Shown here piece after piece: positions 1-3,000 of a stretch of DNA of 17,599 bases. The stretch is from a virus (taxonomy: Duplodnaviria > Heunggongvirae > Uroviricota > Caudoviricetes), in IMG/VR virus record IMGVR_UViG_2826849342_000003. One strand, given 5' to 3'. A program made the position numbers. Numbering within the stretch: the first letter of the stretch is position 1; each line of letters begins with the position of its first letter.

Positions 1-3000
1 CAGAATGGTGCGCTCAAACTGCCCGGTTTTTCCGCGTTAATGCGAAAATAGGTGGAAAGTTCCATCGGACAGCGCACGCCTTTAGGCACATAAATAAACG
101 TACCGTCAGAGGCTACCGCCGCATTAAGTGCGGCAAAGAAGTTGTCATTCCCCGGCACCACGGTGCCGAGATATTTACGCACCAGCTCCGGGTGATCGTG
201 GATCGCCTAAAGCGAGCAAAATCATTTGATACCGTTTTGAATTTTTTTTGATACCACCCAAAACGGCACAACGAAAAATTATTTGATACTAATCGGGAGT
301 GCTTTTAGGGTATGGCTGAACCTTGAATAGCTTAGTATTTAGCCGCTTCCTTGCTCGCTTGTTCAGGAACCTGATGTAGCGATACTGATTAAATTTGTGC
401 ACCACGGCACGCTCTTTATTAGCCCGTAAATACACGCCTCGTTGTCCACCTCGCTTCATCGCGTTCATCGTTATCTCGTGATACCACTCACCATCCAGCT
501 CGTAGAATGTGCTTTCATGGCTGCCAATAAAATCAAAATTTGACGCCTGATACACAACGCCAGCACGTCCGCAGCGTTCGTCTGCAAAAGACTGAACCCA
601 CTCCACTGACGGATACAGTAACCTTATGGTTTTCAGTGCATAACTGATGGCCCGTGATTCAGAGTTGCGGGGCATGTTGTCGTGTAGCCACATGCGGTTC
701 AACTCCATATAGCCCCGGTTATCCGTTTCAAGCACGACACGACGACCTGAGTTGGGGTTAAGGGCATATCCCCACTGGAGAACGCCAACCAGATCGCGTC
801 CGCTGAATACTCCCAGGTGGAGGTAAGAGTTATTCACAAAACGGCGGGAATAGTGCTTTGTCTGAATAATTGTGCGGGCCAGCCAGCAGGATATGGTTTC
901 AACGTGCAGCTCCTTTGAACCATAGCCAACAATCTGGCCTTCATACTCAATAACACACGGTTTCGTCAGAATGCGTGATTTTTTCTCTTTTCCCACAATG
1001 TTTCTCCGTGGGATGCTCGCAGGCATTCAGCATTATGATGTGACGTTTGCAACGCGGACACCTGATTTCAATGTGATCAAAGGAATCCGCCTTAAATAAC
1101 AGTTTGTTGCAGTTTTTACAGCGAATTGATTTCATCTCACCTCCTTTGCATCAATTCGCCACTATCTTAAAAAACATCGTGGGTTGAGTGTGGTTATTGG
1201 GGCATAATCGATCTATATTACCGATCGATTTGATTGATTCGATCGTCGTTTTCTATATGTGTTCGTTTGGCGGGGTGTTTTTTATACAGCGTTGACAGGG
1301 CCACATCGTAGATCAATGCGACCTGCTTGCGGGGGATTCCTTGTGCTAATAAACGCCCGGCCTGCTCCCATTCCGCTTTGGTTAGTTTAGGTGGTCGCCC
1401 ACCGATACGGCCTTTATTTCTGGCAGCAGCAAGTCCAGCCATCGTTCTCTCGATGATTAGTTCTCGTTCCATCTCAGCCAGGGCACCCATAACGTGGAAG
1501 AAAAAACGCCCCATTGGAGATGACGTATCAATACTGTCAGTAAGACTGCGAAAATTAATCCCTCGCTCTCGTAATTCCCCTACGAGAGAAATCAAATGTT
1601 TCATGCTTCGCCCGAGGCGATCCAGTTTCCAGACAACCAGTGTGTCACCTTTTTGAAGACGCTTTAAAGCGCGTTTTAATCCAGGTCTGTCTGTCCTTGT
1701 TCCGCTTAATTTATCTTCAAATATTTGTTCACATCCTGCACAAACAAGAGCGTTTCGTTGCAGGTCTGTATTCTGGTCATTTGTTGATACCCTTACATAG
1801 CCAATCAGCACTCTGGATCTCCCGTTTAAAAACGCAAATCATGCCATGCAGGCCGGAAACAGCCATTATCTAAAACCTCGGTTTACAGGAAACGGTAAAT
1901 CAGGCTTCTGGCGCATTACAGAAAAACCAGAACGGCGCAGATATTCCAGGAAAAGATACCTTCACCAAAAATATTGGTGCCTGTCGCGCATATAGCGCAT
2001 GGGTGGATATTGGTGGCGATAGTCAGGTCTGGACAACTGCGCAATTTATTTCGTGGCTGGAGAGTCAGGGGGCATTTAACCATCCTTACTGGATGTGCAA
2101 AGGCTCATGGGCTTATGCAAATAATAAGGTCATTACAGATACAGGTTGCGGAAATATTTGTCTTGCAGGTGCTGTTGTGGAAGTTACTGGCACTCGTGGC
2201 GCAATGACCATACGCGTTACCACGCCGGGCACGTCCAGCGGCGGCGGAATCACTAACGCTCAATTCACCTATATTAATCATGGTGATGCTTACGCTCCTG
2301 GCTGGCGACGAGACTACAACACGAAAAACCAGCAGCCTGCATTTGCTTTAGGGCAAACAGGAAGCAGGGTTGCAAATGATAAAGCTGTTGGCTGGAACTG
2401 GAATAGCGGTGTTTATGATGCAGATATCAAAGGCGCAACAGCATTAATCCTCCACTTCAATAAGAATACGGGGAGCTGTGAGGTGTACTGGCAATAGCGG
2501 ACACTACCATTTGTTCTTTTTTTAAGCAGCCATCTGATGATATTTTTCCCTGAAGGCTGCCGGGGAGATATTCCCCAGACGAGAGTGACGACGCTGACGA
2601 TTGTAGAAAATCTCAATGTATTCCCGTATTACTGAGATGGCTTCATCCCGGTTATTAAAACGATAGTGGCTCAGGCTCTCATTTTTCAGCGTTCCCCAGA
2701 AGCTTTCCATCGGAGCGTTGTCGTAACAGTTACCTTTACGCGACATTGATGTTTTCAGACCAAACTGCTCCTGTATGACCCGGTAATCGTATGCGCAGTA
2801 CTGTGAACCTCGATCAGAGTGGTGGATTAGCCCGGCAGGTGGGCGCTGGCTCCTTAGCGCCATAAACAGGGCTTTACCTGTCAGCTCTTTTGTCATGCAC
2901 TCTCCCATGGCGTAGCCGACAATTTCGCACGTATAAACATCTTTGATGCCAGCGAGGTACAACCATCCCTCCTGTGTGGCAACATACGTCAGGTCCGCCA

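Follow-up and report, generated by a model that had tools for sequence, protein, structure and literature searches.

Invertases of the Din family catalyze strand exchange between two inverted sites on a single supercoiled molecule with a Fis-bound enhancer, and they cross-react on each other's sites. Wild-type Gin forms a specific synapse with an enhancer in cis and disfavors sites that are distant or directly oriented. In the intact Mu locus, as in that of a Mu-like prophage of Escherichia coli O111:H2 12A (NZ_CP077479.1), the order after gixR is Sv'-U'-U-Sv-gixL-Sc, and in each the second gix lies ∼3.06 kb away in inverted orientation. Chromosomal invertase remnants derived from prophages and subject to IS-driven decay include the defective pinF of Shigella flexneri and the e14 pin/P segment, which belong to other phage lineages than the locus described here. 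The 1991 work on pinF reportedly found the invertase itself to be defective, whereas at the present locus the invertase is intact and its substrate has been destroyed. A nearer counterpart is pinD of S. dysenteriae, a Gin-like invertase of this species attributed to a defective Mu prophage. The pinD clone described in 1997 reportedly carried one inv site and no invertible segment, PinD is said to have caused inversion of heterologous segments when supplied in trans, and activity is likewise reported for its Mom homologue. That clone reportedly hybridized to both Mu ends, whereas the DNA analyzed here has right-end homology only. To our knowledge, neither the IS600 junction nor the sufB insertion site described below appears in the 1997 work. 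The title of that paper attributes S. dysenteriae pinD to a defective Mu prophage (Tominaga 1997, Microbiology 143:2057-2063; see also Tominaga et al. 1991, J Bacteriol 173:4079), and the gin gene of our locus probably corresponds to pinD, judging by organism, by this title, and by the properties reported for the clone.

We analyzed a stretch of 17,599 nucleotides (here called the window) and conclude that the locus at its start is what survives, at the right end, of a Mu-like prophage carried by Shigella dysenteriae type 1 (SD1). The window matches the chromosome of S. dysenteriae Sd197 (CP000034.1) and two other complete SD1 chromosomes at 99.8 to 99.97%, and since it carries one IS1 (8774-9554) in addition to those of the other SD1 assemblies compared, it represents a fourth SD1 strain. 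Within an E. coli genome collection that contains no SD1, no genome covered more than 44% of the window, and a scan of species-representative contigs for AAAACSTCGGTTTACAGGAA returned 0 matches, the window's own site included, which places SD1 outside that collection. The features of the window are collected in Table 1.

Table 1. Features of the window, in window coordinates
Feature	Position	Strand	Remarks
sufB 3' fragment	1-208		homology ends at ∼208
Prophage right-end terminus	209..304	(-)	∼100 bp; adjoins the sufB 3' fragment
mom, DNA modification gene	289..1026	(-)	intact, 245 aa; Pfam Mom 4e-75; near-identical to Mu Mom
com, translational activator of mom	947..1135	(-)	intact, 62 aa; 1 aa off Mu Com
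gin, serine DNA invertase (pinD in older S. dysenteriae literature)	1218..1811	(-)	intact, 197 aa; GTG start
Putative Fis-dependent recombinational enhancer (sis)	1642..1811	(-)	first ∼170 bp of gin; homology to Mu only
gixR crossover site	1866..1893	.	core AAACC-TC-GGTTT; crossover dinucleotide TC at 1878-1879
Sv' (S' variable) cassette	1874..2478	(+)	first 600 of 958 nt kept; without its own start codon or promoter
Chimeric 164-aa ORF	2003..2497	(+)	GenBank ABB62023.1 / Q32F82_SHIDS, "part of phage tail fiber"; ends CEVYWQ-stop
IS600 copy 1, truncating element	2479..3742	(-)	1264 bp; 99.5% identical to annotated IS600
Foreign flank: N-terminal fragment of lambdoid-prophage nanS-p (DUF1737)	3743..3945	(-)	Pfam DUF1737
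stx-less Q/nanS-p region	rest of window		
Second IS600, inverted	rest of window		IS1 in its terminal repeat
Truncated helicase gene	rest of window		
cro, cI, restriction-modification pair, Rha-family gene	rest of window		
IS3-family element and IS1-family element	rest of window		
Truncated ycjM	other end of window from sufB'		

The surviving prophage amounts to 2.27 kb and comprises the right end, mom, com, gin, gixR, and a partial Sv'. The complete 12A-type prophage matches the window at 204-2478 only (97.6% identical) and Mu and SfMu at 305-2478 only, with no further homology to any of the three elsewhere in the window or in the 8 kb upstream. A transposable prophage of the Mu type would have both ends, transposase A and B, and structural genes; this complement is not present, and the locus is a remnant incapable of transposition. 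The prophage insertion point lies within sufB, which explains the split sufB. The terminal ∼100 bp adjoining it contain three TTTGATAC motifs and are of another type than the ends of Mu and SfMu, but they are shared with the 12A prophage (homology from 204), which also has TTTGATAC motifs at its left end. In the annotation of a contig carrying the same locus, com is named Zn_ribbon_Com.

In gene order (mom-com-gin-gixR-Sv'), nucleotide identity (95 to 96%), and the reading frame that runs through the crossover site, the remnant resembles the G-segment region of Mu and D108, from which it differs in having one gix and not two and an incomplete Sv', and in the absence of U', U, Sv, and Sc. The 12A prophage is the closer relative, given its identity across the whole remnant, its equally unusual end, and the T variant of gixR that both possess; SfMu carries the same type of cassette, there fused to Sc. 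Nothing is missing from either of these elements, which have gixL, the two cassettes with their two chaperones, and transposase A/B, and both are inserted elsewhere (in ppsR in the case of 12A).

The Gin protein has the architecture of a small serine recombinase of the Din family, with an N-terminal resolvase catalytic domain (PF00239, 7e-50; Ser9 nucleophile), the motif YVRVSTNDQ, and a C-terminal helix-turn-helix (HTH_7, PF02796, 2e-17), and a homologue search matched >7,900 Din-family clusters. It is 100% identical to Gin of phage D108 (UniRef GIN_BPD10) and to Gin of the 12A prophage, and it differs from Mu Gin by A183T and a 4-aa tail. An initial sequence-only reading of this DNA had described the invertase as intact, which agrees with the full-length gene, its two domains, and its identity with D108 Gin; Gin looks fully functional. 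The enhancer sis lies in the 5' part of Mu gin, a position reportedly given by Kahmann et al. 1985, and the corresponding sequence in the window is essentially unchanged, with 3 positions differing from Mu over the first 200 nt of gin. SD1 also has a truncated "phage DNA invertase" as a second such gene, near ipaH at ∼1.05 Mb in HNCMB 20080.

The crossover site itself is well preserved. The 28-mer TTATCTAAAACCTCGGTTTACAGGAAAC occurs once in the window, at 1866-1893 (0.00 matches expected from 200 shuffles), and is identical to gixR of the 12A prophage and 1 base off gixR of Mu, in which the annotated "G-segment boundary" maps to the central TC of our site. The 26-bp crossover sites of the Din family consist of two imperfect inverted half-sites about AAACC-NN-GGTTT; positions 1866-1891 have 2 mismatches to their consensus and 1 to Mu gix, so that the site belongs to this class. 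No second gix was found in the window with TTATCTAAAACCTCGGTTTACAGGAAAC at ≤3 mismatches, with the core at ≤2 mismatches, or with the Din-family consensus TTNTCNNAAACCNNGGTTTNNGANAA at ≤3 mismatches, and the next-best 26-mer in the window has 9/26 mismatches. A second gix was likewise not found in the 8 kb upstream, searched in three complete genomes. The sequence-only reading had noted a single gix-like site and no inverted partner by eye, and the computational search bears out both observations. Its description of the site as an orphan holds for the neighborhood, from about -9.9 kb to +15.7 kb, an interval without an inverted gix, and we restrict it to that interval. Within the 17.6-kb window and the 8 kb upstream there is hence no segment flanked by two inverted sites, and the gix at 1866-1893 is an orphan.

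Downstream of gixR, the reading frame through the site follows a TAA at 1871-1873 and stays open from 1874 to a TAG at 2495-2497; it is the frame in which Mu fuses Sc to Sv'. Positions 1866-2478 are 95 to 97% identical to Sv' of Mu, D108, SfMu, and many E. coli prophages, which substantiates the earlier proposals that the sequence is a tail-fiber variable region and that it is open in frame from gix. No sigma-70-like promoter was detected in 1100-2600, in keeping with a promoterless cassette as had also been proposed, and the earliest start codon in this frame is a GTG at 2003, from which the GenBank entry is translated. Homology to Mu S'/Sv' reaches 2478; the megablast alignment ends at 2475, and the last three Sv' bases are CTG versus TTG in Mu, a single difference. 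IS600 begins at the next base, where the sequence-only reading had placed the loss of the 3' end. A Cys codon spans the Sv'/IS600 junction, and the end of the ORF, EVYWQ-stop, is read from the IS600 terminal repeat, so that the insertion element supplies the stop codon. The chimeric ORF is already termed a partial tail fiber in the Sd197 annotation. In a full-length homologue the gp37_C domain of the tail-fiber tip occupies residues 157 to 250, and by a hand count the cassette would be cut inside this domain, at about residue 200.

What remains is far from a Mu G segment, which has both Sv and Sv', the chaperones U and U', and an outside Sc with its promoter: where the intact Mu and 12A loci continue beyond Sv', the run in the window ends at 2478, and no homology to U', U, Sv, or Sc was found in the window or upstream. 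The sequence-only reading took the invertible segment to be destroyed, and this is correct locally; we refine it to an IS600-mediated recombination by which the missing part was removed or relocated.

This refinement derives from the flanks of the truncating element. The element encodes an IS3-family transposase (NF033516) and is an IS600 (IS3 family), a type of about 1264 bp with terminal inverted repeats and a frameshift in orfA/orfB, but the bases on its two sides, CTG (2476-2478) and GTC (3743-3745), do not form the 3-bp direct target duplication that a simple insertion would leave. Its far flank is a nanS-p fragment that shares 95% identity with sequence lying downstream of stx in Stx phages (E. 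coli NIID080884), so that IS600 here joins two unrelated prophages. A simple IS600 insertion is ruled out by nanS-p as the far flank; this flank and the lack of a target duplication indicate that the segment was lost through an IS600-mediated rearrangement, and the junction is of the kind left when two IS600 copies recombine or when an IS deletes adjacent DNA. We also considered the 9 nt past IS600 (2470-2478 and 7364-7372) as a shared flank, and these sequences do not match when read; a repeat search had included them in the IS600 inverted repeat.

Draft contigs of this region all stop inside IS600, beyond which short reads cannot show the sequence, and the junction could in principle be an assembly artifact across IS600 repeats with the G segment continuing behind the element. 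We regard this as extremely unlikely, since two complete chromosomes, CP000034.1 and CP118616.1, and a 210-kb contig of strain 1617 span the junction with the same order on both sides and the window adds a fourth strain. Among the contigs that we read, 19 encode exactly the 164-aa chimeric protein, with an identical junction in all; the three spanning assemblies are among these carriers. All carriers with a name are SD1 assemblies, and 14 contigs are labeled S. dysenteriae in the cluster record. The chimeric junction is fixed in the SD1 lineage.

The two ends of the window reveal a larger rearrangement. The sufB fragment is in K-12 orientation and the ycjM fragment is inverted, joining K-12 position 1.7635 Mb to 1.3713 Mb, and these opposed orientations require at least one large inversion in the history of the region, which shows that it was shaped by inversions as well as deletions. 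We therefore weighed whether the segment was split and not lost, with a large IS600 inversion having moved gixL, Sv, U, U', the remainder of Sv', and the left part of the prophage far away. The opposed ends of the window, joined from points 392 kb apart in K-12, would fit such an event, as would an IS600 without target duplication, which is expected of a recombinant copy, and inversions associated with IS elements, some spanning about 400 kb, are numerous in SD1 genomes (PMC7819885). Several negative results speak against it. A PHASTER table for a complete SD1 genome contains 27 prophage regions and no Mu-like one (PMC7819885, Supplementary Table 4); region 12 of that table, at 1.84-1.86 Mb, which is listed with a DNA methylase and a 42% coverage to Stx2-converting phages, probably corresponds to the window. 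Within the first 1.75 Mb of the annotation of that genome, Mu-type tail genes are absent, the terms "baseplate," "Mu-like," "Mom," "SufA," and "SufB" do not occur, and the sole tail-fiber entries in that portion are GpH/Stf fragments at ∼1.04 Mb by a Rac-like exonuclease VIII gene. The N-terminal SufB fragments recovered in a protein search were all due to frameshifts or contig ends, and none stopped where the Mu-like prophage is inserted. For the lost 119-aa C terminus of Sv', fragments were returned from E. coli, S. flexneri, S. boydii, and S. sonnei, none labeled S. dysenteriae and none with an IS600-derived N terminus. These negatives argue weakly against a displaced Mu remnant, and we consider such a split unlikely. 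If it did occur, the partner gix would lie hundreds of kilobases away in direct orientation, and as wild-type Gin is known to be inefficient on distant direct sites, the switch would be dead in either case.

We favor, with high confidence, a history in which a Mu-like prophage in sufB was gutted by an IS600 rearrangement that left gin and one gix. The order of events may be reconstructed as follows. A Mu-like transposable phage, of the type that is intact in E. coli O111:H2 12A, would have entered sufB in the SD1 ancestor. An IS600 copy in the then silent Sv' would have recombined with an IS600 in a lambdoid prophage or else made an adjacent deletion, and through this step the final 358 nt of Sv' would have been deleted or carried elsewhere, together with U', U, Sv, gixL, the constant part Sc and its promoter, and the remaining phage. 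Left in place are the end of the prophage, mom, com, gin, and gixR, as well as 63% of Sv'. Since a Din invertase needs two inverted sites and one is present, no inversion can take place at the locus, and without inversion the cassette is never fused to the promoter and start codon of Sc.

With a single gix at the locus, Gin is able to act only in trans, and we infer that it is still expressed and acts in that way only, perhaps on a segment of a Mu-like or P1-like element entering the cell. A stronger claim would be that intact Gin has been kept for use by the cell, either pairing the orphan gix with a distant Din site in programmed large inversions or flipping the host-range segments of incoming Mu-like or P1-like elements. 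The gene has stayed perfectly intact among the many pseudogenes of this genome, with no variation across the SD1 genomes that we examined, SD1 has a second invertase elsewhere (the truncated one by ipaH), and Din-family invertases are described as interchangeable (PMC8987985). But SD1 is a young clone in which an intact 594-nt gene is explicable without selection, and the neighboring mom and com are equally intact. Neither the window nor the 8 kb upstream yielded a candidate partner site, and what is known of the family, in which wild-type Gin needs its cis enhancer synapse and disfavors distant or direct sites, is also unfavorable to a role in large inversions. We consider retention for a cellular function very improbable.

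The loss of the switch is ordinary IS-driven prophage decay, known in outline, and the present analysis refines it with the IS600 junction, the nanS-p flank, the sufB insertion site, and lineage-wide fixation; it does not describe a new kind of system. The value is mainly one of annotation: the "recombinase family protein" at this locus is a substrate-less Gin (PinD), and the locus provides a clean, lineage-fixed case of IS600 recombination dismantling the prophages of SD1. Being structurally stable, the remnant could be used to mark the SD1 lineage, and an active, trans-acting invertase may sit in the pathogen S. dysenteriae type 1.

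A 1.58-kb segment (window 3743-5325) lies between two IS600 copies of opposite orientation, the first at 2479-3742 on the minus strand, and could flip by homologous recombination at these inverted copies; it has the same orientation in all three Shigella dysenteriae type 1 (SD1) assemblies compared, Sd197 (CP000034.1), the draft of strain 1617 and CP118616.1. The IS1 carried by the second IS600 copy is bounded by a target duplication of 8-9 bp, A/CCTGAGTT. The larger part of the segment (3743-4733) corresponds to the backbone of a Stx-converting phage, starting at nanS-p and reaching upstream as far as the Q end, and lacks the block with stxAB and tRNA genes that the Stx-phage reference carries (L003 3689-5312), the gap point falling between window 4401 and 4429. 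The remaining 590 bp (4734-5325) do not align to this reference and contain an open reading frame (ORF) with no match in Pfam or NCBIfam. Gene calls give it 123 amino acids in Sd197 and 1617, against 152 amino acids in CP118616.1, a difference that probably reflects a frameshift or a change of start site between the strains.

Coordinates of features in the window
Feature	Position	Strand	Remarks
STnc100 sRNA	4167-4372	minus	match of 156 bits
152-aa ORF	4792-5250	minus	
Second IS600 copy	5326-7363		range includes IS1; inverted relative to first IS600 copy
IS1 inside second IS600 copy	about 5342-6109		in left terminal repeat of second IS600
IS1	8774-9554		target duplication CACTCTCG
isrK	13851-13926		Rfam match
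C4 antisense RNA	13951-14038		Rfam match
ACCAATC, seven perfect tandem copies	14064-14113		after isrK and C4 matches, just upstream of Rha-family ORF
Rha-family regulator ORF	14128-14544		

The other IS1 of the table is present in the window and absent from Sd197, 1617 and CP118616.1. Judged from this sequence comparison it is a strain-specific insertion, which implies that the window derives from an SD1 isolate other than these three.

Strain 1617 is itself represented by two assemblies that differ in the chimeric tail-fibre/IS600 ORF (window 2003-2497). The draft encodes the full 164 amino acids, whereas the complete genome (a contig of 4,302,517 bp) encodes a version of 86 amino acids (protein P0164) from which 78 internal codons are absent. 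The stock may truly have lost these codons, or the assembly may be wrong at this point. Elsewhere in SD1, Supplementary Table 1 of PMC7819885 lists a second "Phage DNA invertase" for the HNCMB 20080 chromosome (1052886-1053326), truncated, 441 nt long and adjoining an ipaH gene.

Within the lambdoid remnant, an apparently intact restriction-modification pair (10761-13234) adjoins cI. It comprises a methylase with an Eco57I domain and an endonuclease of the BsuBI/PstI family, and the module is 99% identical to its counterpart in E. coli Stx phages. With its heptamer repeat, apparently prone to slippage, the region 13851-14544 resembles a P1 immI-like immunity module.

At one end of the window (16365-17599), ycjM is truncated at about nt 1062 by an IS1-family variant with only about 70-79% identity to the other IS1 copies over the short stretches aligned in the repeat search. 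Inverted with respect to sufB, the remaining part of ycjM shares only 91% identity with K-12.

At the opposite end, the final ~100 bp of the Mu-like prophage (209-304) are unrelated to the ends of Mu and SfMu, and from position 305 inwards the remnant is 96-98% identical to both. This terminal stretch contains TTTGATAC motifs, present also at the left end of the prophage in E. coli O111:H2 12A, and its sequence suggests a mosaic phage whose transposase-binding specificity differs. A search of the protein collection did not find a SufB N-terminal fragment of the expected form. The prophage splits sufB (window 1-208; 7231-7998 of L004, one of the three SD1 assemblies compared), and the SD1 lineage therefore carries an interrupted Suf operon for Fe-S cluster assembly.
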